From Escherichia coli (GTDB lineage Bacteria > Pseudomonadota > Gammaproteobacteria > Enterobacterales > Enterobacteriaceae): a stretch of DNA of 64,000 bases. This document shows, one piece after another, positions 1-15,557 of this stretch; the stretch's first letter is position 1, and every line of letters begins with the position of its first letter. A program made the position numbers and the translations under genes. The DNA lies in assembly GCF_003019035.1 (NCBI RefSeq), contig NZ_CP027447.1. The stretch is one strand, 5' to 3'. The notes under the pieces are model-generated. The model was not told the DNA's origin, made no database searches, and worked only from the letters and a program-made list of their open reading frames with translations.

Positions 1-1073
1 GCGACGCGGTGCGCGGCTTGTTCCAGGTGACCATTTAACGACGCCCGCAAGGCATCATCGGCAATTAACGTTTCACCAAACCATTGACCCGCTCGTGCGA
101 TACGTTCTTTCACACGAGAATCTTCACTGTTGATATCCACTTTCAGCCATTCCCGTAAATCCCCCCACAATTCACTGAGATAGCGATTAAAAGCTTCATC
201 TTCTTTCAGATAGCTTTTTACGGCATCGGCTCGCGCTGCCATTTCCGGATCGTTTTTCAGCTTGTCGATCATGGCAAAGGTGGCGCGATCAAACGCATTG
301 CGGATCTGATGCGCACGATCGCGACTAATATCATCAAGCAAAGAATTCACCGCGTCAGAAACCAACTCCGCGCTATGTTCGCCCAGCCATTCGGTGGGGA
401 GAATTTTGGCTTTCAATGGATGCTCGCTCTCCAGCCAGCGAACAATTTGCTGGGCGATAAACTTGCGCGATTTATCGCGCTGGAGAAGGGCGATCAACTG
501 TGCGATCAGCGTATCCAGCAGCACCTGATGACGATCGTTTTTGGTCATACTCTCCAGCATCAACGCACTGGTGCCGGAAAGATCGACCTTATCAATCGCC
601 CGATGGACTGCGCGCTTAAGCAGGCGCTGAATACGCGCATCATCGGTCAGTTCAAGAAAACCACTCATGATCTGCAACAGATGCTGACCAACGCGGCGGG
701 CGTTTTCTGGCTGACTAAACCAGTTGCCAATCAACAACGCCGGTTCGTGACGTCGAATCAATGCCACCAGCGATTGGGTATCGAGAAATTTTTCCTGCAC
801 GAACTGACCGAGATTTTCGCCAATCCGGTCTTTATTACGCGGGATAATCGCCGTATGACGAGAAATGATCGGAATCGGCACGCGGCGAAATAGCGCCACC
901 ACCGCAAACCAGTCCGCCAGCGCGCCGACCATCGCCGCTTCAGCAATCGCCTTCACGCCGCTCACCCAAAAATTGGGCGGCAAAAACAGCGTAACGACAA
1001 AGGTAGCAGCGGCGATAAGCAGTAAAGAGAGCGCCAACATTTTGGCGCGTCTGAGTTCAATGAGTTTATTCAT
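1..1073 (-). CDS. yjiN: DUF445 family inner-membrane protein YjiN, 5' part only (3' end lies beyond window start)
   Basis: Reverse-strand translation from ATG at 1073 gives [30 protein letters not shown]..., open to position 1; sits downstream of mdtM as in K-12. Confidence 0.75.
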
Positions 1074-1113
1074 AACGTTAAGAATAGAGCCTGACGGCAG
1101 GATCGCGCAAAAA

Positions 1114-2346
1114 TCACCGCTCCTCCGCCAGCTCGGCAGCCTGATGCTGGCGCACGCGATTGAGCAATCCCGCCAGGGTGAAAACGACGATAACGCCCGC
1201 TAAAACGGCTAACAGATGAAACGGCAAGCGACCGCCGTTAAACCACAGCCAGCGGCCGATTTCGACTGAGACAGACATCACCATCAGGATCACCATATTT
1301 AGCGATGCGGAGACGGTCCCTTTCGGTAAGTTATTGGAAAACAGCGTAAAGCGGAATAAGGTCGGGAAAATCAAACCAATCCCGAAAGCATACAGACTGG
1401 TGCCCAGCACCGACCACAGCCAGACGTGCGGCGACAGCAGATTGCCGATAATCAACAGCGAGAGGCCGACCAGTTGAAGGGGTACGGCACGCCAGATAAA
1501 CCGCGGTTCGGTCGGATCTTTAACGAAACGCGCCACGATGGCATTCGCAACAATCACCGCGCCGAACACCGGAACCTGTGTCCAGGCGAACTGCGAAGTT
1601 GTTAAGCCGCCTGCATCGATAAGGATCACCGGCGAGACAGCCACCCAGCTCATCATCGGGATATAGCTTAAAGAGATGGTTGCTGCGCCAAAGAGGAACA
1701 GCCGATTGCAAAAGACATTACGAAAATCGCGCAAGACGCTTTTGGCGCTAAACGGAACCGCGCCGCGCTTCACCGTCTCTGGCATCGCCAACAGTAAGCC
1801 AACAAATGAGATAAAACCCATAACCGCAATGATGGCAAAAAGGACTTTCCAGTGCATAAAGTGCATCAGAGCTGCGCCGGAAAGCGGGCCGATAATCGGC
1901 GCAATCAGTACGATGGAGGTGATAATCGCCATCAACTTGATCCCTTTTGTCTGTCCGAACGCCTCCTGCACCGTGACATAACCAACGGTGGCAATAAAAC
2001 AGATACTGGTGCCCTGAATGGCACGCGCGATAAGAAACTGTGTCATAGACGTTGTGAACATTGTCGCGGCGCAGGCAAGGGTAAAAATTAGCGCCCCGGT
2101 AATCAGCACCGGCCTGCGGCCAATTCTGTCGGAAAGTGGCCCCAATAGCCACTGTAACGCCATACCGCCAGCGAGATAGAGACTGACGGCAGCAGGGGCC
2201 AGACTGACATCGGCATTAAAATCACGTACCACATTAATAATCCCTGGCTGGATTAGATCCGTCGACAGGTACGCGGCAAAGTCATACAAAATCAACGCCA
2301 TCGGGAAAAACAGCGTGGCGGCATGGCGGGCAAAAAAACGTGGCAT
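1114..2346 (-). CDS. mdtM: MFS multidrug efflux transporter MdtM
   Basis: 410 aa from ATG at 2346 ([10 protein letters not shown]...) with AAGGAG 8 nt upstream; track ORF starts 9 nt further up at TTG; MFS motifs [13 protein letters not shown]. Confidence 0.9.
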
Positions 2347-2813
2347 AAAAAACAACTCCTTGTCCGGAGAACCCCAATGGGGAAAACGAAATTCAATACC
2401 GTCGGTAATGACGAAAGGCAGGCGAGAAGGACAAATGTACTGAATTTCATGTAATCAACCACACTGCCTGTGAACACACAGACAGAGAAATACCTTCTGA
2501 CTCCAGGTCAGAATGTATAACGATTACAAATAGTCATCAGCACATTACACCTCTTGAATTGATGGATTGCATAGAAAATATACACCTTAAGTGTAATTAA
2601 AATTTGCGGTTAATCAAAAGAGCGCGGTGGAAAGGGGAATATCTGCCGGGTACAGGACATGTAAAAACACGAGCCTGTTTCCGGAAAAATGTATCGTTTG
2701 CAGAGGAACAAAAATAGCCTGGAAAGCACCTCGGGGAACGAGAAATTGCCGGGTGAGAATTGTTTTGTTAGTCGCTACAGTCGGGCCATCTTATCTACAG
2801 GTGACGGATCGCC

Positions 2814-3770
2814 ATGACAAACTTCACGACCAGTACGCCGCATGACGCATTATTTAAATCCTTTCTCACGCACCCTGACACCGCGCGGGATTTTATGGAG
2901 ATCCACTTACCCAAAGATTTACGTGAACTGTGCGATCTCGACAGCTTAAAACTGGAATACGCCAGCTTTGTCGATGAAAAATTGCGGGCGCTACATTCCG
3001 ATATTCTGTGGTCGGTAAAGACCCGCGAAGGAGATGGCTATATTTATGTGGTGATTGAACATCAGAGCCGCGAGGATATCCATATGGCCTTTCGCCTGAT
3101 GCGATATTCCATGGCGGTGATGCAGCGCCATATCGAGCGTGATAAACGCCGGCCGCTACCGCTGGTCATCCCGATGCTGTTTTATCACGGTAGCCGTAGT
3201 CCTTACCCCTGGTCTTTGTGCTGGCTGGATGAATTTGCCGACCCGGCTACCGCACGGAAGCTTTATACCGCAGCGTTCCCGCTGGTGGATGTCACTGTCG
3301 TGCCAGACGACGAGATTGTGCAGCATCGCAGAGTCGCCCTGCTGGAGTTGATCCAAAAGCATATTCGCCAGCGCGATCTAATGGGGCTTATTGATCAACT
3401 GGCAGTATTACTGGTTACAGGGTGCGCTAATGACAGCCAGATAACCGCGCTGTTAAATTACATTTTACTGACTGGCGATGAAGCGCGTTTTAATGAGTTT
3501 ATCAGCGAACTTATCCGTCGAATGCCACAACACAGGGAGCGAATAATGACGATTGCAGAGCGAATTCATAATGATGGATGGCTGTTGGGAAGGGAGAGGG
3601 GGAGGAAAGAAGGGAAAGAAGAAGGGGAAAAGAGCCTCCTCCGATTGTTGTTGCAGAATGGGGCGGATCCTGAATGGATACAACGATATACCGGACTTTC
3701 GGCAGAGCAAATGCAGGCATTAGATCAGCCCTTGCCTGAAAGCAAGCGCGATCCATGGATCGAGTACTAA
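2814..3770 (+). CDS. rpnD: Rpn (YhgA-like, PD-(D/E)XK transposase_31) recombination-promoting nuclease, intact 318 aa
   Basis: ORF track 2814..3770; family hallmarks [23 protein letters not shown] and Lys/Glu/Gly-rich C-terminus; position between mdtM and yjiR matches yjiP/yjiQ locus. Confidence 0.75.
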
Positions 3771-3797
3771 TCAGAGGCCGATGGCAAACGCAAAGCT

Positions 3798-3826
3798 GCC
3801 TGATGCGCTACGCTTATCAGGTCTAC
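3798..3826. repeat. REP-like palindromic element between convergent rpnD and yjiR
   Basis: gcctgatgcgctacgcttatcaggtctac resembles REP consensus (GCCTGATGCG...CTTATCAGGCCTAC), shortened. Confidence 0.4.
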
Positions 3827-4012
3827 ATAACCCATTAAATATATTGAATTTTAAAGATTTTGTAGACCTGGTAAGGTGTTCACATGGCATCCGGCATGAA
3901 CGAAGCGCATTTTGCCTAAGCCATGCTGGAACGTGGAGATGACCCTGCAAAGATAAAACGAGTCACACGCTATTCGTGAGAGGAAATCAGGGGGCTCGCC
4001 ACTATTTCGAAT

Positions 4013-5807: not shown

Positions 5808-6146
5808 TTAGCGTGGCGTTTTGCTACTAATCACCCCAATAAAATCCTGCACCTGCTTTTGTTTACGCGCCGACAGCTTGCACACCTGGCGCAGCGACAG
5901 CATCAGTTCGCTCTCTTCGGCGGCGGGTGGTTGGGCGGTGAGGACAATACAGCCTTCCATCACTTTGACATCTACCGCCGTGCCGGTGGCAAAACCGGCG
6001 GTTTCCAGCCACTGACCTTTCAGGGTGATGGCGGGAATACGGCTGTAATCCGGGTAGCGACTCGCATAACTCACGGTTAATTGACGGTTATTTGCCGGGG
6101 AGACTTCTGCTTCGAACGGTTGTGCAATAGAATGCGTGTCAGTCAT
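5808..6146 (-). CDS. symE: SymE, SOS-induced type I toxin (AbrB-fold RNA-cleaving protein)
   Basis: 112 aa [48 protein letters not shown]... matches remembered SymE; LexA-like box upstream. Confidence 0.85.
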
Positions 6147-6216
6147 GATTACTATTCCTTAGAAATAGGGATTGTGATTAGCGGTGCGGGTGTGTTGGCG
6201 CACATCCGCACCGCGC
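6138..6216 (+). ncRNA. symR: SymR antisense sRNA (antitoxin of symE), approximate ends
   Basis: By analogy with K-12, where SymR is antisense to the symE start and 5'UTR; candidate -10 TAGAAT at 6128..6133 on + strand and GC hairpin 6181..6214; boundaries not verified. Confidence 0.4.
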
Positions 6217-6223
6217 TAAATAC

Positions 6224-6239
6224 CTGGATATATCATCAG
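6224..6239. promoter_or_regulatory. LexA (SOS) box upstream of symE
   Basis: CTGGATATATCATCAG fits CTGT-N8-ACAG with AT-rich centre, about 80 nt upstream of the symE start codon. Confidence 0.5.
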
Positions 6240-6328
6240 TAAATATGGGGAAAGTCCAGCTAAAAATAGAAAATAATAAAAGCGTTACTGGAAAGATCTG
6301 GAAGAGAAATTAACGTTAATTCAGAATG

Positions 6329-6354
6329 GCCGGATAACAAAGTGTATCCGGCCT
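6329..6354. terminator. Hairpin immediately downstream of hsdR stop
   Basis: ggccggata-caaagtg-tatccggcc inverted repeat 7 nt beyond the hsdR stop codon. Confidence 0.35.
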
Positions 6355-6360
6355 TCATAA

Positions 6361-9300
6361 TTAGTTTAAAACACTCATATGATGTTCTTTAAAATTCTCT
6401 GCCTGTGCCAGCACTCCCATATAAACATCATCATTCGCTACTGGCGGGAACTTATGCTTGTGTAGAAGAAGAATAAGTTCAACTTTTAGTTTCGCTTTAA
6501 TATCATCGCGCTTACTCCAGTCAGGATATTTCGATGTGTTGTCAACCACGCTTTTCATCTCTTTTGCCAGTGACAGCATTTTTTCATCGTCATAGGTGAA
6601 CTGATATTTATCGCGCATATGAGCAAGAATGTCGAAAAACGCTTTTTCTTCAATATCAATACCTAAATCGGCCCATGTGCCCATTTCGGTTTTAATATCA
6701 TAGATAATATCGGTCATTTCCTGACTGAATGTATCGAATTCTTCACCGTTGAGTACATCATCTTCTCGCCGCTCATTATAACGATCTATAATCGCCTGGA
6801 AGCGGCGGGTGAAGTTAATCCCTTGCAACTGGTTCACTTTCTTGAAGTCGCTGATCGCTTTTTCCAGTAATTTTTGTAATAACTGGATCTTTGTTGCCGG
6901 AAGTTTGATCTTGTTAATTCGCGCCAGATAATCTTCGTCAAAAATATCGATGGATTCCGCTTTTTTATCGCCAAGAAAATAAATTTCTTCTACGCCATCA
7001 GCTTTTAGCGCTTCTGCAATCATTTCACGAACGCGTGCATTCATCTGGGTGACATCCGGTGCGTCACCTTTCGTCAGTTTGAAAACAATTGAACGAACAG
7101 CAAGATAATAGTGAATATGATCACGTTCTGTCTGTGATAGTGCTTCACTGCCGCAGCAGACGTCGTAGGCGGCTTTCATGCGTTTAACCAGTCCCATAAA
7201 ACGACGTTCAACTTTCTGGGTACGCAGAACAAATTCCGCCGCGCGGTTGAGGCAGGATAATTGCGCTTGTGGCTCACCACTAAAATAATCCCGACTGTCA
7301 AATTCGTAAAAGACTTGCCCCAACAAATCGAGATGGTTTTTAACTTCTATTACCGATTGCTGAATATCTTCAAAGTTGGTGGCATCAATGCGGGAATACA
7401 TTGCCAGTGCCTGGTTCATCTGACTTTTAATGCCGATGTAGTCCACCACTAACCCTTTACTTTTGCCTTCCAGTTTACGGTTAACGCGAGAAATGGTCTG
7501 GATAAGATTATGTTTTTGTAAGGGTTTATCAATATAGATGGTATCCAGTTCCGGGACGTCGAAACCAGTCAGCCACATATCAACAACAATGGCAATTTTG
7601 AAATTCGATTTAGCGTTTTTGAACTGCTTATCCAGCTCTTTACGATATTCTTTTGTGCCCAGTAAATCATAAAGCGCCTCGTCGTCATCTTTACCGCGCG
7701 TCATGACCATCTTCACCATTTCTGAAGGCGGTAACTCTTTCTGCTCCTGTTCCGTCAGGACGACGCCATCGGGGGCTTGCTTCACTTCAAACCAGGTAGG
7801 GCGAATAGCTTTAAGCTGGCGGTAGAAATCCCAGGCAATTTCACGGCTGGCACAAACAAACATGGCTTTGCCTTTTACGGTGGAACCTTCGGCTACGCGT
7901 TTTTCATAATGTTTAGCAAAATCTTCCGCGAGGGCTTTTAACCGATCTTCATCACCCAGTACCGCATTCATGGTTGCGGTGGCTTTTTTGCTTTCGTCGA
8001 TTTGCCACTCATTGGTGCCTGCGTTTGCGCACTCTTCGTAATACTTTTCGACTTCTTCCAGTTTGCTGGAGTCCAGGATCACTTTAGCCGCACGGCCTTC
8101 GTACACGATGCGTACAGTGATTTCATCCTGAACGGATTCGGTCATGGTGTAACTGTCGATCACCTCACCGAAGACATCGAGCGTCGCGTCAATCGGTGTG
8201 CCGGTAAAGCCAACATAGGTGGCGTTTGGCAGTGAATCGTGCAGGTATTTCGCAAAGCCATAAGTTTTGCGCACTTTTCCGCTTTCTTTATCGACGATGA
8301 CTTTCTGGTCGAGGTTAACCTGGCTGCGATGTGCTTCGTCTGAGATGCAAATGATATTGCTGCGTTCAGAAAGGAGTTCGGTGTCTTCGGTGAATTTATG
8401 GATCGTTGTCAGGAATACACCGCCACTATTGCGTCCCGCCAGTTGATTACGCAAATCTTCACGGCTGATAACAGGAACGATGGTGTCGTCGCCAATGTAA
8501 TTTTTGGCGTTGCACATTTGCGCAGAAAGCTGATCGTCCAGATCGGTGCGGTCGGTGATCAAAACAATGGTCGGGCTGGCAAACTCCACGCTCTTCATCA
8601 AAAGACGCGTTAAAAATTGCATGGTGTAACTTTTGCCACAGCCCGTTGCGCCAAAGTAGGTGCCGCCTTTACCGTTACCGAAAGGTTTACGCGCTTGCTT
8701 GATGCTGTAATAGAGTTTGCGGGCGGCATAGTACTGCGGATATCGGCAGCAAATTTTTACTTCGTGCTTAGCTTTATCCGGGAAGCAGATAAAGTTTTTA
8801 ATCACATCCAGCAGACGTACCGGATGAAACAGCCCCTGAATCATTGAGTGCAATGACGGAATTCCGTCCTGTTCACGGTTTTCATTACCGGTGACTTTGC
8901 GCCATGAGTAAAAATATTCATAGGGCGCAAACAGGTTGCCCATCCGGTTATTAACGCCATCGCTAATAATGCAGAGCGCGTTGTAGATAAACAGTTGCGG
9001 AATATCCCGGCGGTAGCGTTTACAGAGCTGCTTCCAGGCATCACCTATACTGGCTTCCTGCTCGCGCACCGCGCTTTTAAATTCAAAGACGACCAATGGC
9101 AGACCATTGATATAGAGAATGCCGTCAGGAATACGAGTCTGATTATCTTTGCCGGAGATTTTAAGCTGGTTAACAATCTTAATCCGGTTAAGCGGCGGAT
9201 TAATATAGGAGGGCGGGAGTTCTGCCGCCTGTTGCAACGGGACATCTTCGGCGTCAAATATCTGGCGCAGTGCGGCAGGTAGATGCCGGGTGTCGAGCAA

Positions 9301-9624
9301 TTCAATATAGAGATCTTTTTGTTGCCGATCGTCGCGTTTGAACAGAAAACCATTTGCCAGCCAGCGACAAAATGTTTTGTTGCTTTCATAAAGATCGGAG
9401 GCCGGAAGCGTGGTGAACTGTTTGATCAGTCGCTGAATCTCTTCTTCAGTAATGCCATCAGGCTGGTAGCGTGCCGCTAAATAATGACGGAGATCGTCTT
9501 CGATAATGACCTGATCGAGACTTGAACGAGGGACATTATCGCCGATCAGGTGTTGATATCCCTGATCCTGTAATAGTTCAATGATCGCTTGTTCTAATTT
9601 TGCTTCACTGAAAGAGAGACTCAT
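6361..9624 (-). CDS. hsdR: Type I restriction enzyme R subunit (HsdR; SF2 helicase/translocase plus nuclease)
   Basis: 1087 aa from ATG at 9624 (track starts at TTG 9636); helicase motifs YFGATGCGKS (Walker A), ICISDEAHRSQ (DEAH), VGFTGTPI. Confidence 0.9.
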   Translation of the reverse strand: MSLSFSEAKLEQAIIELLQDQGYQHLIGDNVPRSSLDQVIIEDDLRHYLAARYQPDGITEEEIQRLIKQFTTLPASDLYESNKTFCRWLANGFLFKRDDRQQKDLYIELLDTRHLPAALRQIFDAEDVPLQQAAELPPSYINPPLNRIKIVNQLKISGKDNQTRIPDGILYINGLPLVVFEFKSAVREQEASIGDAWKQLCKRYRRDIPQLFIYNALCIISDGVNNRMGNLFAPYEYFYSWRKVTGNENREQDGIPSLHSMIQGLFHPVRLLDVIKNFICFPDKAKHEVKICCRYPQYYAARKLYYSIKQARKPFGNGKGGTYFGATGCGKSYTMQFLTRLLMKSVEFASPTIVLITDRTDLDDQLSAQMCNAKNYIGDDTIVPVISREDLRNQLAGRNSGGVFLTTIHKFTEDTELLSERSNIICISDEAHRSQVNLDQKVIVDKESGKVRKTYGFAKYLHDSLPNATYVGFTGTPIDATLDVFGEVIDSYTMTESVQDEITVRIVYEGRAAKVILDSSKLEEVEKYYEECANAGTNEWQIDESKKATATMNAVLGDEDRLKALAEDFAKHYEKRVAEGSTVKGKAMFVCASREIAWDFYRQLKAIRPTWFEVKQAPDGVVLTEQEQKELPPSEMVKMVMTRGKDDDEALYDLLGTKEYRKELDKQFKNAKSNFKIAIVVDMWLTGFDVPELDTIYIDKPLQKHNLIQTISRVNRKLEGKSKGLVVDYIGIKSQMNQALAMYSRIDATNFEDIQQSVIEVKNHLDLLGQVFYEFDSRDYFSGEPQAQLSCLNRAAEFVLRTQKVERRFMGLVKRMKAAYDVCCGSEALSQTERDHIHYYLAVRSIVFKLTKGDAPDVTQMNARVREMIAEALKADGVEEIYFLGDKKAESIDIFDEDYLARINKIKLPATKIQLLQKLLEKAISDFKKVNQLQGINFTRRFQAIIDRYNERREDDVLNGEEFDTFSQEMTDIIYDIKTEMGTWADLGIDIEEKAFFDILAHMRDKYQFTYDDEKMLSLAKEMKSVVDNTSKYPDWSKRDDIKAKLKVELILLLHKHKFPPVANDDVYMGVLAQAENFKEHHMSVLN

Positions 9625-9690
9625 ATCGCGCTCCAACCCTGGCTAATTTCTGGTAAGCATTCCCGTATCAGTAGAAAACCTTACCAGAAA

Positions 9691-9710
9691 GCCCCTGATT
9701 TTACAGGGGC
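9691..9710 (-). terminator. Hairpin between hsdS stop and hsdR start
   Basis: gcccctg-atttta-caggggc inverted repeat; on the coding (minus) strand followed by tttctggtaagg; implies a separate hsdR promoter. Confidence 0.4.
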
Positions 9711-9718
9711 AAAATGCG

Positions 9719-11113
9719 TTATGCAGTTTCTGTATCGGTGTTGAGATCCGGAAGATCTTCCCGGGATAGCTCACCGGAGATGAGTTTCGGGAGCAGGGTG
9801 TCGCGGAGGTTGCTCAGGACTATTTGATTATTATTATGTGACTTGTCAATCCAAGGCATAACGATATTATAAAAAGTATTAATTATTTCAACATCTGGCA
9901 TAACTACATGTTCAGCCTCAAGAAAATATTTTGTCTGGAAGTTAGCGATTCCTGTACTTTGGTTTTGGTATTCCCACATTTTTCCATCGTTATATATTTT
10001 ATTGAGGTGTAAACTAATTATTAGCCCTATCTCTATAGATAACGGCTCAAACTTGCGACAAAAACTAGCAGGTTCAATAATACCCCCTAATCGACTTATA
10101 ATCTGTTCAGTCATGAAAATTGAACGGCCAGTTGACTGCGTTGGACTTCCTCCTGAAACTTCTATTATAATATCACCATTATTAATTTTTCTTTTTTCGA
10201 GTTTTTTGGGTTCTACCCATCTACATGGGGCAGAACTCATTTTCCCTGAAATTAACTCCGGGATATCAGTACCGCGCACTATCACTGCTTGAATTGTATG
10301 CTTTTCATCTCTGGAATCACTCCCCCAGTCACCACCAATTGTATTTTTTAGTAAACTATTAACATTTGAAAACTTCCAACCTTTAGGAATTAAACCTAAC
10401 TCCGTTTCTTCAAATTCACTTGGGAAAAGCGAGCGGATTTCCGCCGGAAGCGGTTTAAAATCTGTACTATTACGTACTTTTTGACGCAACTCGGCACGAG
10501 ATTGCAGAGCCTCCGGGATTGGATTTCCTGCATCCAGAGCGTTATCAACCACCGGATCAAAATCCACAAACCAGGATTTGAACAGGGTTTGGGACATTTG
10601 TTCTAATGACTTATTTATTACTTCATTGGATTTTAGCTTACTAAATATAAGAGTGTTTGTTTTTGCGATATGTTGGCAATATTTATCTGGTGCAAGATTA
10701 AATTCATAATCTAATATGGCTGTTTTATCACCCCTTGGCATTTTGGTGCCTTTGGATGTTAAAACAGTATGTTCGATGAATTTTTGATCCATTAATACTG
10801 ATAGAATATAATTAGAATTAATATTTTTTTTAGGACGGAATACAATTACATCGTTAGAACAGCCACCAGTTCGATCTGCAAGCCATAGTTTTTTAAAATA
10901 TGTTCTGATATTCGAGAATAAAATATCTCCAGAATGAAATTTTGTTATTTTCCCTGTGCTAGGTTTACTATTTGCTATTGATATACCTCCAAAATTGGTA
11001 AGCATATTTTCAGTTGATATGTAATCGCAAAGACTAATTTGCGATACATCAACTTTAGTAGTGATGATATCTACAACTTCTTTAAGTTTTATTTTCTCCC
11101 ACTTACTCCCCAT
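9719..11113 (-). CDS. hsdS: Type I R-M specificity subunit (HsdS), two target-recognition domains
   Basis: 464 aa from ATG at 11113 (MGSKWEKIKLKEVVDII...), overlapping the hsdM stop by 11 nt; TRD-like motif GDILFSNIRTYFKK; strongly AT-rich DNA by eye. Confidence 0.85.
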   Translation of the reverse strand: MGSKWEKIKLKEVVDIITTKVDVSQISLCDYISTENMLTNFGGISIANSKPSTGKITKFHSGDILFSNIRTYFKKLWLADRTGGCSNDVIVFRPKKNINSNYILSVLMDQKFIEHTVLTSKGTKMPRGDKTAILDYEFNLAPDKYCQHIAKTNTLIFSKLKSNEVINKSLEQMSQTLFKSWFVDFDPVVDNALDAGNPIPEALQSRAELRQKVRNSTDFKPLPAEIRSLFPSEFEETELGLIPKGWKFSNVNSLLKNTIGGDWGSDSRDEKHTIQAVIVRGTDIPELISGKMSSAPCRWVEPKKLEKRKINNGDIIIEVSGGSPTQSTGRSIFMTEQIISRLGGIIEPASFCRKFEPLSIEIGLIISLHLNKIYNDGKMWEYQNQSTGIANFQTKYFLEAEHVVMPDVEIINTFYNIVMPWIDKSHNNNQIVLSNLRDTLLPKLISGELSREDLPDLNTDTETA

Positions 11114-12722
11114 AACCCAGCACCTCCAGATTCTGGCGAATCGCACGATCCAGTTCTTCCGCCTGCTTCATCTGCTCAAACAACGTCTTCGACAATTCGC
11201 GCATTTTCGTCTCAAATGCCACGCCGTCCTCTTCCTGCTCGGCTGCACCTACATAGCGGCCCGGTGTCAGAACGTAGTCGTTATCTTTAATGTCTTGCAG
11301 GGTCGCAACTTTGCAGAAGCCAGCCTGGTCTTCATATTTTTCCAGCTTGCTGTCACCACGCGCAATCCGTGCAGCCAGTTCTTCCGGCGTACTGCGCCAG
11401 GCATGGTAGGTATCGGCGATGGTGGCAATATCTTCCGTTGTTAACTCTTTAGTTGTGCGGCTAATCATGGTGCCGAGGTTACGCGCATCAATAAACAGCG
11501 TCTCGCCCTGACGATCACGATAACCTTTGGCCGGATCGGCAGCCTTCGATTTGGTCATAAACCATAAACACACCGGGATCTGCGTGGTGTAAAACAACTG
11601 ACCTGGCAGAGCGATCATGCAGTCAATCAGATCATTTTCGATCATCTGTGCACGGATCTCGCCTTCACCGCTGGTGTTAGAACTCATCGAACCGTTTGCC
11701 AGCACAAAACCTGCTGTGCCGTTAGCCGACAGCTTGGAGAGCATATGCAAAATCCAGCCGTAGTTGGCGTTACCGGTTGGCGGCATACGATACCCAGCAA
11801 AACGTGGGTCTTTGGTTAATTCGGCTTCATTACGCCAGTCTTTCAGGTTGAACGGCGGGTTCGCCAGAATGTAGTCGGCTTTCAGGTCCGGGTGCTGGTC
11901 GCTAAAGAAAGTGTTTGCCGGTCGTTCGCCGAGGTTAGCTGAAAGACCGCGAATGGCGAGGTTCATTTTTGCCAGTTTATACGTCGTGGCAGTCAGTTCC
12001 TGACCATACAGCGCGATATCACGGCTTTTACCCTGATGGCTCTCGACAAACTTCACCGACTGCACGAACATCCCCGCCGAACCGCAGCACGGGTCATAAA
12101 TTTTGCCCTGAAAGGGTTCGAGCATTTCAGTTAACAGCGTAACCACACATTTAGGCGTGTAGAACTCACCACCGCCTTTGCCTTCAGTTGCGGCAAACTT
12201 ACCGAGGAAGTATTCGTAAACGCGTCCGACCAGGTCTTCTTTCGATAACGTTTCAACGTCAGTTTCGTGTGCCAGCGTTTCGATGTTGTCGATGGTATCA
12301 ATCAGTGACGCCAGTTTTTTGGTTTCCAGATTCTGACGGCTGAAGTAGTTGTCTGGCAGCGCGCCTTTCAGGGTTGGGTTACGTTTCTCAATGGTCGAGA
12401 GGGCGGTGTCAATACGAACCGCAATATCGTCCTGTTTGGCATTTTGTTTGATAAACGACCAGCGCGCCTCTTCCGGCAGGTAGAAAATGTTGTCCTGCTG
12501 GTAGAACACTTCCATCTCAAGGAAGTCAGCTTGCCCATCGGCAATCATTTTTTTGCGGCGTGCTTCAAACTTATCGCTGATGAATTTCAGGAACACGAGG
12601 CTCAACACCACGTGCTTGTATTCGGAGGACTCAACGCTACCGCGAAGCTGGTTTGCTGTATCCCATAATGTTTCTTCAAAGCCTTTCTTTGCTTTGGCTT
12701 TTTTAGTTGGTGCTTTGGCCAT
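11103..12722 (-). CDS. hsdM: Type I R-M N6-adenine DNA methyltransferase subunit (HsdM)
   Basis: 539 aa; SAM-binding IYDPCCGSAGMF and catalytic NPPF (ILANPPFNLKDW). Confidence 0.9.
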   Translation of the reverse strand: MAKAPTKKAKAKKGFEETLWDTANQLRGSVESSEYKHVVLSLVFLKFISDKFEARRKKMIADGQADFLEMEVFYQQDNIFYLPEEARWSFIKQNAKQDDIAVRIDTALSTIEKRNPTLKGALPDNYFSRQNLETKKLASLIDTIDNIETLAHETDVETLSKEDLVGRVYEYFLGKFAATEGKGGGEFYTPKCVVTLLTEMLEPFQGKIYDPCCGSAGMFVQSVKFVESHQGKSRDIALYGQELTATTYKLAKMNLAIRGLSANLGERPANTFFSDQHPDLKADYILANPPFNLKDWRNEAELTKDPRFAGYRMPPTGNANYGWILHMLSKLSANGTAGFVLANGSMSSNTSGEGEIRAQMIENDLIDCMIALPGQLFYTTQIPVCLWFMTKSKAADPAKGYRDRQGETLFIDARNLGTMISRTTKELTTEDIATIADTYHAWRSTPEELAARIARGDSKLEKYEDQAGFCKVATLQDIKDNDYVLTPGRYVGAAEQEEDGVAFETKMRELSKTLFEQMKQAEELDRAIRQNLEVLGYGE

Positions 12723-12785
12723 GATGAACTCTGTTCAGATAAATTGGGTCGCTATTGTAATGGTAGAGACGGCAGATTTCGCCCT

Positions 12786-13952
12786 TTAATCCATCTCCAG
12801 CTCATCAAACAACTGCAAATCTACATCCAGCAATTCCACTGCATTGCTGCGGCGAATGCCGACGTTATTTTCGATTAACAGTTCCAGTAAGCGATCGCCG
12901 TCGATAAGCGTAATGGGCGCGGCCCCCGGAAAGAGCGCCGCTTCTGCACATTTCGCTGCAAATTTCCCGGTGGTGATGAGCGTACCGCGAATGGCCTTGT
13001 GGTAAGGCAACGCTCCGCGCAACTGGTCGATATACGGTCGAGTGATGGTGTTCTGCATTCTTTTGACCTGCACCACTTCGGTAATAGTGGTGATGCCGAC
13101 CTGCACCTGACCAATCACGTCCACACCTTTATCGCCTGAGGCTTTGGTCACTTCGACCTGCTCGTAGCCCATTGCTTCCAGTAATTGACCGACCAGTTGT
13201 TCAAATTTGTACGGGTTCATCGTGCTGATTTGTTCGCGCAGCAGCTCTTTTTGCTGTTCGTTATAGCGTTTTACCGCTTCCAACAGCTCTTTACGCGGAT
13301 CGCTTTTTCGTGCAGGCAACGCTTTTCCAAGCCAGGCGCGCCCGGTATCGGTGATGCGATAGCTCATGCCTTCACGGTTAACCATGTCACGGTCGATAAG
13401 GTTATAGAGACGGGAGTAGAGCGTGCTTTTCACTGAACTTGCTGACGCGAATTTCGAATGCTGATGCAAAAAGGCCTGCCATTCCGGCAATAAATCGGCG
13501 CGGCGCGACATTTCCCGGCCAGCCAGCAGCTCAAGCAGTTGCAGAATGCCTTCCTGGTCGTCCAGTGAACGCAGCGTTTTTTCGTCATCTTGCAGGAATT
13601 TTTGCCCGCGCGAGGTGGGCTGCCAGGTATCGTCTGGCGTGCTTTCCATCAGCTCAAACTGGGGATAGTTGAGGAATAAGTAGCAGCCGTAGCTGTGGCG
13701 CGGGTTCAATATGTGATTATCGGTATCCCAAATACGACGGGCGATGTCGGCATCTTCACCCGTTAAGCGTTCGCTGATCCACAGGTCAGGTTCCGACCAG
13801 TCAACGGGTTTTTGCGGCGTTCCGGTTTGCTCGTGAATGGCAGTAATCATATTGCGCACCGCTTTCAGGGAATAGCCTGAGACGGCTTTCATCATAGCCT
13901 TAACTTGCGCATAGGTAGGAAAAAGCGGGGTAATGACTTTGTAGTTTTTCAC
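12786..13952 (-). CDS. Mrr-family (Type IV, modification-dependent) restriction endonuclease-like protein with extended N-terminal region
   Basis: 388 aa, GTG start at 13952 with AAGGGA SD; C-terminal region (GDKGVDVIG...VVQVKRMQNTITRPYIDQL...LITTGKF) resembles the K-12 Mrr catalytic domain as I recall it; N-terminal 250 aa not recognisably Mrr-like. Confidence 0.7.
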   Translation of the reverse strand: MKNYKVITPLFPTYAQVKAMMKAVSGYSLKAVRNMITAIHEQTGTPQKPVDWSEPDLWISERLTGEDADIARRIWDTDNHILNPRHSYGCYLFLNYPQFELMESTPDDTWQPTSRGQKFLQDDEKTLRSLDDQEGILQLLELLAGREMSRRADLLPEWQAFLHQHSKFASASSVKSTLYSRLYNLIDRDMVNREGMSYRITDTGRAWLGKALPARKSDPRKELLEAVKRYNEQQKELLREQISTMNPYKFEQLVGQLLEAMGYEQVEVTKASGDKGVDVIGQVQVGITTITEVVQVKRMQNTITRPYIDQLRGALPYHKAIRGTLITTGKFAAKCAEAALFPGAAPITLIDGDRLLELLIENNVGIRRSNAVELLDVDLQLFDELEMD

Positions 13953-14148
13953 GGTAATCCCTTAACGACAGCGAGGTGTTTAGTGTGCCATGTCAGGCGA
14001 GAAATTCTATTGGATGAATCAAGTCCAACTCACACATTGTCAATTTCATGGTTGATTATTCGAAACGTGATGCTATTTCCAACATCAACGCTATAATTGC
14101 AGAATAATTGTACATACATTTTTGTATATACAATTAGGGATGGCAACT

Positions 14149-14268
14149 ATGCCAATGGAGTTTGAATGGGATGCAAATAAGGCCAAAGGTAATCGGGTGA
14201 AACATGGCATCCGCTTTGAAGATGCGGTGTTAGTGTTTGATGATCCACAACGAACGGAATCGCTATGA
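14149..14268 (+). pseudogene. brnT: brnT (DUF497 toxin) remnant with internal deletion
   Basis: MPMEFEWDANKAKGNRVKHGIRFEDAVLVFDDP matches the BrnT N-terminus, stops after 39 codons; a BrnT-like C-terminus (NERNRYEHG-stop, ending 14278) is in the +1 frame. Confidence 0.55.
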
Positions 14269-14567
14269 GCATGGTTAAACATAAACGAGGGACCTCCTCT
14301 ACACTCGATGTGCAGCATGAGGCCGAACTGAAGGCGCTGGCGAATAAATCCGACGAAGATATTGATTACAGTGATATCCCACCTTCCAGCGATGAGCAAT
14401 GGTCTAACGCAGAACGCGGTAAGTTTTATCGGCCATTGAAAACTCAGGCCTCGGTGCGTATTGATTCTGATGTGATGGAATGGTTGAAGCGACCAGGTAA
14501 AGGCTATCAAACTCGCCTGAACGCAATTTTACGTGAAGCGATGCTGCGCGATCAGAACAAAAAATAA
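14265..14567 (+). CDS. brnA: BrnA-like antitoxin (ribbon-helix-helix / DUF4415 family)
   Basis: 100 aa; C-terminal ...VRIDSDVMEWLKRPGKGYQTRLNAILREAM matches BrnA signature; start overlaps the brnT remnant in typical TA fashion (alternative ATG at 14271). Confidence 0.6.
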   Translation: MSMVKHKRGTSSTLDVQHEAELKALANKSDEDIDYSDIPPSSDEQWSNAERGKFYRPLKTQASVRIDSDVMEWLKRPGKGYQTRLNAILREAMLRDQNKK

Positions 14568-14600
14568 TTCAGGCCGCCACATGGCGGCCATCATCCAAAA

Positions 14601-15557
14601 TTACTTCCTCAACCCCGCAAACGCCGCCCGAATCTCATCCTCCGGCAGCTGAATCCCGATAAACACCATCGTGCTATGCGGTTTTTCATCGCCCCATGGC
14701 CTGTCCCAGTCGGCGCTGTAGAGGCGCTGGACACCCTGGAACAGCAGGCGATTAGGTTCGCCGTCAATCCATAGCATCCCTTTGTAACGCAGTAGTTTAT
14801 CCGCCGACTCCAGCAGCAGGTTTTCCATCACGCGGGAAACTTCGCTGATATCTACCGGGTAATCCAGTTCCACCACAATCGACGAAATATCGTTTTGTTT
14901 GTCCGCGATAAAGTGGAAACGCGGTTTGGTGCTGACGACGTTCTCTTCCAGCATAAAACCGTTGGTGTTGAACAGCAGGCCCAGGTCGATGTCGCCGTGG
15001 GTGACGGTGTAGATCGGTGCACGGGCGTTGATGCGCGCCAGGCGTTCACGCAGTTTTTCTGCTTCGCCTGCGACGTCGGTTTTAGTCAGCAGAATACGGT
15101 CGGCGTAGCCAACCTGTGACTGGGCGATGGTGAACTGGTTCATCTGCTCATCGGCATGTACCGCATCCACCAGCGCAATCACGCCGTCCAGCAGGTAACG
15201 CTGGCATAAAATCTCATGGGAGAAAAAGGTCTGAATAATCGGGCCGGGATCGGCCATGCCGGTGCATTCAATCACCAGACGGTCGAACTGAATATTGCCC
15301 TTGTCGAGATTATCCAGCAGGTCGAGTAGGGCGTCTTCCAGCTCGTTGGAGCGCGAACAGCAGATGCAGCCGTTGGTCAGCGTTTTGATCTGCGTGACGC
15401 GATCGCCAATCAGTTGATCATCAACGGAGACTTCGCCGAATTCGTTTTCAATCACGGCAATCTTGTAGCCGTGTTGTTCGTTAAGAATATGGCGCAGCAG
15501 GGTGGTTTTGCCGGCGCCTAAAAAACCGGTGAGTAGGGTAACTGCAATCGGGTTCAT
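14601..15557 (-). CDS. yjiA: CobW/P47K-family GTPase (zinc-binding) YjiA
   Basis: 318 aa from ATG at 15557 (MNPIAVTLLTGFLGAGKTTLL; P-loop); track ORF extends upstream. Confidence 0.9.
   Translation of the reverse strand: MNPIAVTLLTGFLGAGKTTLLRHILNEQHGYKIAVIENEFGEVSVDDQLIGDRVTQIKTLTNGCICCSRSNELEDALLDLLDNLDKGNIQFDRLVIECTGMADPGPIIQTFFSHEILCQRYLLDGVIALVDAVHADEQMNQFTIAQSQVGYADRILLTKTDVAGEAEKLRERLARINARAPIYTVTHGDIDLGLLFNTNGFMLEENVVSTKPRFHFIADKQNDISSIVVELDYPVDISEVSRVMENLLLESADKLLRYKGMLWIDGEPNRLLFQGVQRLYSADWDRPWGDEKPHSTMVFIGIQLPEDEIRAAFAGLRK

Follow-up and report, generated by a model that had tools for sequence, protein, structure and literature searches.

The 64,000-nucleotide stretch of Escherichia coli DNA analyzed here (the window) carries, between symE and yjiA, what is very probably (a probability of about 0.9) an intact chromosomal restriction-modification system of Type ID (the StySBLI family), which is allelic to the IA (EcoKI) and IB (EcoAI) cassettes known from this position. 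This supports the core of an earlier sequence-only reading, namely that the immigration control region holds a Type I system from another family, ordered hsdM-hsdS-hsdR. The host strain would then carry the ID alternative at this locus, which matters little beyond annotation. The cassette is an already known, textbook feature described in the literature (PMC12707154, PMC4659465), and the only rare feature of the window copy is the pairing of its two recognition domains.

Subunit genes

On the minus strand, hsdM (539 aa), hsdS (464 aa), a hairpin, and hsdR (1087 aa) follow one another in the order and at the positions given by the sequence-only reading. The hsdM gene (11103..12722, minus strand; its product starts MAKAPTKKAKAKKGFEETLWD) encodes the Type I N6-adenine DNA methyltransferase subunit, which contains the Pfam domains HsdM_N and N6_Mtase (E = 8e-106), matches PADLOC MTase_I with 641 bits, and has DPCCGSAG as motif I (residues 210-217) and NPPF as motif IV (residues 288-291). 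The specificity subunit is encoded by hsdS (9719..11113, minus strand; PADLOC Specificity_I, 451 bits), the open frame of which reaches an upstream GTG at 11146. Searches of NCBIfam returned no model matching HsdS.

The restriction subunit, which combines nuclease and translocase, is encoded by hsdR (6361..9624, minus strand); its open frame reaches an upstream TTG at 9636, and GGAG lies 8 nt upstream of its ATG. HsdR matches NCBIfam TIGR00348 (hsdR) with 465 bits (cutoff 284.55) and PADLOC REase_I with 1719 bits, and its Pfam domains are HSDR_N, SWI2_SNF2/ResIII, T1R_D3-like, and T1RH-like_C. The nuclease motif PD...EFK (residues 166-183), DEAH (429-432), TGTP (474-477), and QTISRVNR (709-716) are all present, and GATGCGKS is seen in the translation. 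All three reading frames are full length, with catalytic motifs and diagnostic domains intact. [quoted passage not shown]

Extent of the cassette and its frequency in E. coli

A blastn comparison of the window with the K-12 immigration control region delimits a variable cassette at 6278..14600 (no strand assigned), homology stopping at 6277 on the symE/symR side and restarting at 14601 in yjiA. The flanking symE and yjiA are 94-98% identical to K-12, whereas the DNA between them is wholly different, in agreement with the allelic replacement of EcoKI-type genes that had been proposed. The cassette contains hsdR, hsdS, hsdM, an Mrr-like gene, a brnT remnant, and brnA. Base composition also sets parts of it apart: against 51.4% GC for the window overall and 54-56% for flanking genes, hsdM has 50.9%, hsdR 45.5%, and hsdS 36.2%, so that the previously described AT-richness, strong in hsdS and lesser in hsdR, is confirmed.

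The Mrr-like nuclease gene (12786..13952, minus strand; 388 aa) is part of the replaceable cassette; it shares the strand of hsdM and lies 63 nt upstream of it. Its product has a Pfam Mrr_cat domain at residues 243-359 (E = 4e-29), matches PADLOC PDC-S02 over its full length (687 bits) and mREase_IV at its C-terminus, and is only 31% identical to K-12 Mrr, a similarity limited to the catalytic domain; no NCBIfam model matching the protein was found. The gene also adjoins hsdM in EC958, Salmonella, and Klebsiella, and was named Mrr by Forde et al. (PMC4659465).

The arrangement is not unusual. An ID-type hsdM is present in 872-951 of 5,426 complete E. coli genomes (about one in six), compared with 929 for IA and 966 for IB, which makes IA, IB, and ID three allelic families of about equal frequency at the E. 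coli hsd locus. According to a 2025 review (PMC12707154), the immigration control region hosts IA, IB, and ID systems at 14%, 11%, and 12%, respectively, and these make up practically its whole Type I complement (36%). Elsewhere in the window, the reading frame at 1114-2355 was considered as an insertion relative to CFT073 and dropped, since its position and size are those of mdtM as annotated in EC958.

Assignment to Type ID

The Type ID family is reportedly that of Titheradge et al. (2001), comprising StySBLI (Salmonella Blegdam), EcoR9I, and KpnAI, and the order hsdM-hsdS-hsdR is said to have been stated for it. The window system has this order, which is common to relatives in Salmonella, Photorhabdus, Vibrio, and Aeromonas, and it occupies the expected position between symE and yjiA in the immigration control region (yjiN-yjiA). 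The Type ID family was originally defined operationally, by subunit complementation or exchange with StySBLI or EcoR9I and by antibody cross-reactivity (PMC12707154, PMC2481252); the criterion applied here was high HsdR and HsdM identity within a family as opposed to ~17-33% between families. By this measure the closest named system is EcoMII, to which HsdM and HsdR of the window are each 99.4% identical. EcoMII is an hsdM-hsdS-hsdR operon, with 92% identity between its R subunit and that of StySBLI (Forde et al. 2015, PMC4659465), and these two identities together place the window system in Type ID transitively, by way of EcoMII and the published figure rather than by direct alignment to StySBLI, EcoR9I, or KpnAI. 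The family, which the sequence-only reading had considered impossible to tell from sequence alone, can in this manner be given as ID.

As this route runs through EcoMII, a separate, undescribed family or an IE (KpnBI-like) system merely sharing the locus has to be weighed. The chain of R-subunit identities through EcoMII makes such an explanation highly improbable, as do the enterobacterial HsdM homologues, 94% identical to the window HsdM, among them those of Salmonella and Klebsiella, the genera that yielded StySBLI and KpnAI, and the finding that IA, IB, and ID make up all Type I systems at the locus (PMC12707154). Given the evidence for ID, membership in Type IE (the KpnBI family) is itself unlikely. 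The HsdM homologues of S. Enteritidis are 91-94% identical to that of the window; a connection of this serovar to the ID family (StySENI shares the StySBLI target) was dropped in favor of the EcoMII link, a methylome study of two Enteritidis isolates having found no motif for their Type I methyltransferase (PMC4393132).

The other families at the locus are remote. HsdM is only 24.5% identical to that of EcoKI (IA), a dissimilarity that had already been pointed out, while HsdR is 24.7% identical over only 219 aa and the gene order differs; for IB the corresponding values are 26.8% for HsdM and 22% over 223 aa for HsdR, with different subunit lengths and order. A Type IC (EcoR124I-like) system would share the hsdM-hsdS-hsdR order, and amongst the PDB chains of named families those of EcoR124 (136 bits for HsdM, 87 bits for HsdR) outscore EcoKI. 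However, these scores represent between-family similarity only, the window HsdR has a T1RH-like_C C-terminal domain, both subunits are tied to StySBLI through EcoMII, and no IC system was present at the immigration control region among 9,040 genomes (PMC12707154), so that the IC reading is effectively refuted. Type ID systems have as their hallmark a 6-bp interval separating the methylated adenines (PMC12707154), and the target of the window allele is predicted, from this family hallmark, to have the same spacing, its two half-sites flanking a spacer of N4-N6. The EcoMII motif A(m6A)C-N4-CTTT would fit this interval provided that the methylated adenine lies opposite the first T of CTTT.

Recognition domains of HsdS

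The domain layout of hsdS was taken from a conservation profile across 113 homologues. On the minus strand, this places the first recognition domain (TRD1) at approximately aa 5-160 (10634-11101), a central conserved region at approximately aa 170-240 (10394-10606), TRD2 at approximately aa 250-430 (9824-10366), and a C-terminal conserved region at 9722-9811. The GC content is 30.1% in TRD1 and 35.0% in TRD2, compared with 46% and 56% in the conserved regions. In the conserved, HsdM-contacting regions, identity to other alleles is 93-100%, and the identities compared domain by domain show hsdS to be a TRD mosaic with AT-rich TRDs, consistent with the earlier suggestion of horizontally exchanged specificity domains.

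Neither TRD has significant similarity to those of EcoKI and EcoMII, and comparison with the N-terminal TRD of CFT073 (EcoAI-type) yielded a negligible match (27.7% identity, E = 0.039); in the PDB there was just a weak match (7VRU_C, E = 4e-8). TRD1 was found in 56 and TRD2 in 4 of the 5,426 complete E. coli genomes, and the two occur together in a single one (strain SCU-301, NZ_CP051751), which suggests that the pairing may specify a recognition sequence unlisted for characterized enzymes. A literature search by strain name for methylomes of strains carrying TRD1 or TRD2 found none, and the methylome papers on O145:H28 and ST101 describe no system matching that of the window. Whether the pairing gives a bipartite target new among characterized Type I enzymes, and secondarily whether ID systems control their R:M ratio at the structurally conserved two-hairpin element described below, a so far unstudied site, is put at slightly worse than an even chance. 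The specificity of the window allele would have arisen in a recombinant hsdS joining two pre-existing AT-rich TRDs, and the locus would thus be a clean example of how new Type I specificities are generated by TRD reassortment on a conserved M/R backbone.

Gene overlap and intergenic hairpins

The 11-nt overlap of hsdM and hsdS (11103..11113, minus strand) could be read in two frames as ATGGGGAGTAA, just as the sequence-only reading had it, and an overlap of identical length occurs in EC958 and in the Salmonella, Photorhabdus, Vibrio, Aliivibrio, and Aeromonas relatives. Translational coupling likely takes place there, as judged from the analogous case of EcoKI (PMC3510504).

A terminator-like scan and folding revealed two tandem hairpins in the hsdS-hsdR intergenic region (9625..9718, minus strand). 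The first (GCCCCTG-TAAAAT-CAGGGGC, 9710..9691), a match in the terminator-like scan, starts 8 nt past the hsdS stop codon and has a 7-bp G+C-rich stem followed by TTTCTGG; the second is longer (~9690-9647). For the 101-nt stretch, the folding energy is -37.6 kcal/mol (z = -3.6 compared with shuffled sequences). The hairpins are kept in EC958 and Salmonella, the two-hairpin architecture is retained with a different sequence in Photorhabdus, and Vibrio and Aliivibrio have one hairpin. Functionally, the pair probably terminates or attenuates transcription between hsdMS and hsdR, in which case hsdR would be expressed apart from hsdMS or at a lower level. A consensus scan of the intergenic region found no convincing candidate for an hsdR promoter, and promoter-like and terminator-like matches overall were no commoner than in shuffled sequence; for these reasons we can only infer the transcript structure.

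Predicted activity

From general knowledge of Type I systems, hsdM and hsdS would be co-transcribed and translationally coupled through their overlap, and HsdM and HsdS would form an M2S1 methyltransferase that marks both strands of a bipartite target with m6A, each TRD reading one half-site. Two HsdR subunits would join this complex to give R2M2S1, which on meeting an unmethylated target would translocate DNA using ATP and cut at a distance. Transcription would probably be stopped or attenuated at the hairpins that follow hsdS. A system working in this way would give the host methylome an m6A motif specific to the strain, and in practice its target sequence would hinder the transformation or transduction of DNA into the host strain.

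A genuine ID locus might nevertheless be silent, or only methylate, in the host strain (e.g., if unexpressed, or if restriction is alleviated). Two S. Enteritidis isolates carry a Type I methyltransferase with no detectable motif (PMC4393132), indicating that an intact-looking system can be silent, and the neighboring brnT toxin gene, truncated in the window and intact in EC958, points to some erosion of the island. Silence is considered unlikely, given the three full-length reading frames with their catalytic motifs, the near identity of HsdM-contacting regions in hsdS to those of other alleles, and the activity of the nearly identical EcoMII subunits, which methylate >99% of their sites in EC958 (PMC4659465).

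Comparison with known systems

Of the named systems, EcoR124I (IC) shares the hsdM-hsdS-hsdR order with the window and is weakly related to it in sequence; systems of its type are plasmid-borne or located at the leuX hotspot and are absent from the symE-yjiA locus (PMC12707154). EcoKI (IA, K-12) and EcoAI/EcoCFTI (IB, CFT073) occupy the same symE-yjiA slot and follow the same three-subunit Type I logic. Unlike the window, however, both K-12 and CFT073 have the order hsdR-hsdM-hsdS, which the sequence-only reading had correctly given for the EcoKI locus. Their subunits are only ~22-27% identical to those of the window, HsdR being alike in the helicase core only, and differ in length (R 1170 and M 529 aa in IA; R 810, M 489, and S 589 aa in IB). 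The Type IV neighbors differ as well, with mrr in K-12, DUF262/GmrSD genes in CFT073, and the Mrr-like gene in the window.

EcoMII of the E. coli ST131 strain EC958 (EC958_0076-0078) lies in an identical neighborhood (symE, hsdR, hsdS, hsdM, the 388-aa Mrr-like gene, brnTA, and yjiA), with the same 11-nt overlap and intergenic hairpins. The possibility of an identical, already characterized system with the same TRDs, raised in the sequence-only reading, is realized for HsdM and HsdR (99.4% each, with 98.7% for the Mrr-like protein) and not for the TRDs, both of which are unrelated to those of EcoMII. Only the conserved regions of the two HsdS proteins (464 aa in the window, 434 aa in EC958) align, at 83% and 50%. 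Knockout of EcoMII abolishes AAC(N4)CTTT methylation (PMC4659465), and since neither TRD is shared, this sequence would not be the target of the window system.

StySBLI, EcoR9I, and KpnAI are encoded at the allelic chromosomal locus, with an R subunit ~92% identical to that of the window by way of EcoMII. They differ from it in specificity, recognizing CGA(N6)TACC, AGCA(N6)TGA, and GGCA(N6)TTC, respectively (PMC12707154). In the homologous loci of Salmonella and Klebsiella, the Mrr-like gene, hsdM, hsdS, and hsdR lie beside yjiA in the arrangement that they have in the window.

Gene Content and Catalytic Motifs

Open reading frame lists and translations place three Type I restriction-modification genes consecutively on the minus strand: hsdM (12722..11103; 539 aa), hsdS (11113..9719; 464 aa from its ATG, with an open frame reaching back to a GTG at 11146) and hsdR (9624..6361; 1087 aa from its ATG, with an open frame reaching back to a TTG at 9636). 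This is the arrangement that the sequence-only reading had described, including the 11-nt overlap between the hsdM stop and the hsdS start (ATGGGGAGTAA), which is read in two different frames; the feature is real and was correctly read, and all of its factual elements were right. HsdR scores 465 bits against the NCBIfam hsdR model, passing the cutoff of 284.55, and carries HSDR_N, SWI2_SNF2/ResIII, T1R_D3-like and T1RH-like_C Pfam domains; HsdM contains HsdM_N and N6_Mtase, and PADLOC recognizes HsdR, HsdM and HsdS as REase_I, MTase_I and Specificity_I. The catalytic motifs are intact in both HsdR (PD...EFK, 166-183; GATGCGKS; DEAH, 429-432; TGTP, 474-477; QTISRVNR, 709-716) and HsdM (DPCCGSAG, 210-217; NPPF, 288-291). 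Given the intactness of the genes and the activity in E. coli EC958 of near-identical M and R subunits, we infer that the cassette is active; silent Type I methyltransferases are a documented occurrence. As expected for the family, a single transcript would yield HsdM and HsdS, with translation coupled across the 11-nt overlap by analogy with EcoKI (PMC3510504), hemimethylated targets would be methylated by M2S1, and at unmethylated targets R2M2S1 would translocate DNA and cut.

Family Assignment

The mismatch with EcoKI HsdM suspected earlier is confirmed by an identity of 24.5% to the K-12 (Type IA) protein, and HsdR aligns with its K-12 counterpart over only 219 residues of the helicase core. 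Identities to the Type IB subunits of CFT073 are 26.8% (HsdM) and 22% (HsdR), while the matches to PDB chains reach 136 bits (HsdM) and 87 bits (HsdR) for EcoR124 (IC) and 71 bits for EcoKI HsdM. Identity between Type I families is 17-33% (PMC2481252), and the values for the IA, IB and IC subunits lie at these between-family levels. The region of the ST131 strain EC958, on the other hand, is identical in architecture (symE, hsdR of 1087 aa, hsdS, hsdM of 539 aa, a 388-aa nuclease gene, brnT, brnA, yjiA) and shares the 11-nt overlap, with identities of 99.4% for HsdM, 99.4% for HsdR and 98.7% for the Mrr-like nuclease. The EC958 system, EcoMII, has been described as an hsdM-hsdS-hsdR operon that methylates AAC(N4)CTTT, as established by knockout and SMRT sequencing, and its R subunit is 92% identical to that of StySBLI from Salmonella Blegdam (Forde et al. 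2015, PMC4659465). StySBLI is the Type ID prototype. Among 9,040 enterobacterial genomes, the yjiN-yjiA region holds IA systems in 14%, IB in 11% and ID in 12%, which together make up nearly the whole Type I complement of the region (36%), with no IC (2025 EcoSal Plus review). Because of the near-identity to EcoMII, the published link from EcoMII to StySBLI and the documented presence of ID systems at this region, a Type ID assignment is well supported, if transitive; the family, which had been noted as unknown from sequence alone, can thus be named through EcoMII.

Locus and Linked Genes

The hsd genes occupy the immigration control region. Over 6000-13000, the most similar complete genome is that of E. 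coli SCU-301 (99.8%), where the RefSeq order is symE, Type I R, S and M, a 'restriction endonuclease', BrnT (partial), BrnA, yjiA, yjiX and btsT. The K-12 slot comprises symE, hsdS, hsdM, hsdR, mrr and yjiA and is transcribed in the order hsdR, hsdM, hsdS, as is the system of CFT073, so that the reported departure from the K-12 gene order holds. Homology with K-12 ends at 6277 and restarts at 14601, delimiting a replaced cassette of ~8.3 kb with hsdR, hsdS, hsdM, a 388-aa Mrr-like gene, a brnT remnant and brnA. At the cassette edge (5808-6277), symE and the region of the K-12-annotated symR antitoxin RNA are kept at 94% identity to K-12. The mcrBC genes, which lie beyond symE in K-12, are absent, with yjiS and yjiR there instead, as in EC958, and positions 1-3860 (yjiN, mdtM, rpn, yjiR) are collinear with that strain. 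The one complete genome that shares this hsdS, that of SCU-301, has no mdtM and carries an IS621 insertion at that site, indicating that the window comes from a different strain carrying the same hsdS allele.

The Mrr-like gene (12786-13952, minus strand) lies 63 nt upstream of hsdM. Its product has a C-terminal Mrr_cat nuclease domain, no confident Pfam match in the N-terminal ~240 aa, and a full-length match (687 bits) to the PADLOC candidate defence family PDC-S02. The gene accompanies the ID cassette in E. coli, Salmonella and Klebsiella, and in Aeromonas a canonical Mrr gene (Mrr_N plus Mrr_cat) lies 14 nt upstream of hsdM. From this shared neighbourhood, the linkage of the Mrr-type nuclease gene with the ID-type hsdMSR genes looks conserved, and the two may be co-transcribed. 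On the plus strand, a brnT toxin gene remnant (about 14149-14260), missing ~167 bp relative to EC958 and also partial in SCU-301, and an intact brnA antitoxin gene (14265-14567) form a decayed toxin-antitoxin pair at the cassette edge.

The hsdS-hsdR Spacer

The 94-nt spacer contains the hairpin noted previously (9710-9691; GCCCCTG/TAAAAT/CAGGGGC, then TTTCTGG), directly followed by a second, longer one, the tandem pair spanning 9647-9710 on the minus strand (corresponding to 9990-10115 and 12014-12113 in relatives' loci L009 and L006). The folding energy of the region is -37.6 kcal/mol (z = -3.6 versus dinucleotide shuffles). In EC958 and Salmonella the hairpins 3' of hsdS are kept with an unchanged stem and one loop substitution; Photorhabdus has two hairpins in the same layout, with different sequences in both stems and UUUU after the first, and in both Vibrio quintilis and Aliivibrio one hairpin lies just past the stop codon. 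The two-hairpin architecture in E. coli, Salmonella and Photorhabdus looks like compensatory conservation. The pattern of hairpins across the relatives supports a putative terminator or attenuator separating hsdMS from hsdR, which fits the general rule of separate hsdR expression. No hsdR promoter was identified in the spacer.

Mosaic Structure and Specificity of hsdS

The AT-richness claimed for hsdS, and to a lesser extent for hsdR, is evident in GC contents of 36.2% and 45.5%, compared with 50.9% in hsdM, 54-56% in neighbouring core genes and 51.4% in the whole window. A conservation profile over 113 homologues divides HsdS into a first target-recognition domain (TRD1, ~aa 1-165), a conserved central region (~aa 166-245), TRD2 (~aa 246-430) and a conserved C-terminus; the two TRDs have GC contents of 30% (TRD1) and 35% (TRD2) and the conserved regions 46% and 56%, so the AT-richness is concentrated in the exchangeable domains. 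In TRD1, alleles of E. coli, E. albertii and E. fergusonii reach 99-100% identity, with only 9-15% in TRD2; for alleles of Shigella dysenteriae and E. coli, the identities are 98-99% in TRD2 and only 10-17% in TRD1; TRD2 of Klebsiella, Citrobacter and Salmonella alleles is 87-88% identical. These opposite patterns bear out the proposed horizontal exchange of specificity domains, and hsdS is a mosaic; reassortment of exchangeable TRDs is the classical route of Type I specificity diversification (PMC3874165; PMC8287963).

Of 5,426 complete E. coli genomes, 56 have a nucleotide match to TRD1, 4 to TRD2 and one, SCU-301, to the entire gene; public assemblies yield a cluster of 11 member sequences whose representative differs from HsdS by two residues. 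Neither TRD aligned with similarity to those of EcoKI or EcoMII, the match to the CFT073 (EcoAI-type) TRD was negligible, the PDB gave a weak match only, and a literature search by strain found no methylome paper for strains with these TRDs. The TRD pairing is uncommon and probably confers an uncharacterised target sequence.

Distribution and Comparison with Known Systems

Homologues of HsdM are found at 94% identity in Salmonella, Klebsiella, Citrobacter and Raoultella, and at 78-79% in Vibrio, Aliivibrio, Marinomonas and Aeromonas. Systems of Salmonella, Photorhabdus, Vibrio quintilis, Aliivibrio and Aeromonas share both the M-S-R order and the 11-nt overlap, and the one in Salmonella also adjoins yjiA and is accompanied by the 388-aa Mrr-like gene. 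The Aeromonas veronii locus carries an inserted Abi_C (abortive-infection) gene that separates hsdS from hsdR (locus L011, 9920-10600), and McrB-like genes lie downstream; in Aliivibrio, McrBC genes adjoin the Type I system.

Across the 5,426 complete E. coli genomes, the hsdM gene matches 951 (872 over at least 80% of its length), compared with 929 for the K-12 (IA) and 966 for the CFT073 (IB) hsdM, and 6000-13000 is covered to at least 80% by a match in 809. IA, IB and ID are about equally frequent alternatives in E. coli. Occupation of the immigration control region by a Type ID cassette is documented, with a frequency in this species like that of the K-12 type, and the sole distinctive trait of this cassette is the uncommon TRD pairing in hsdS.
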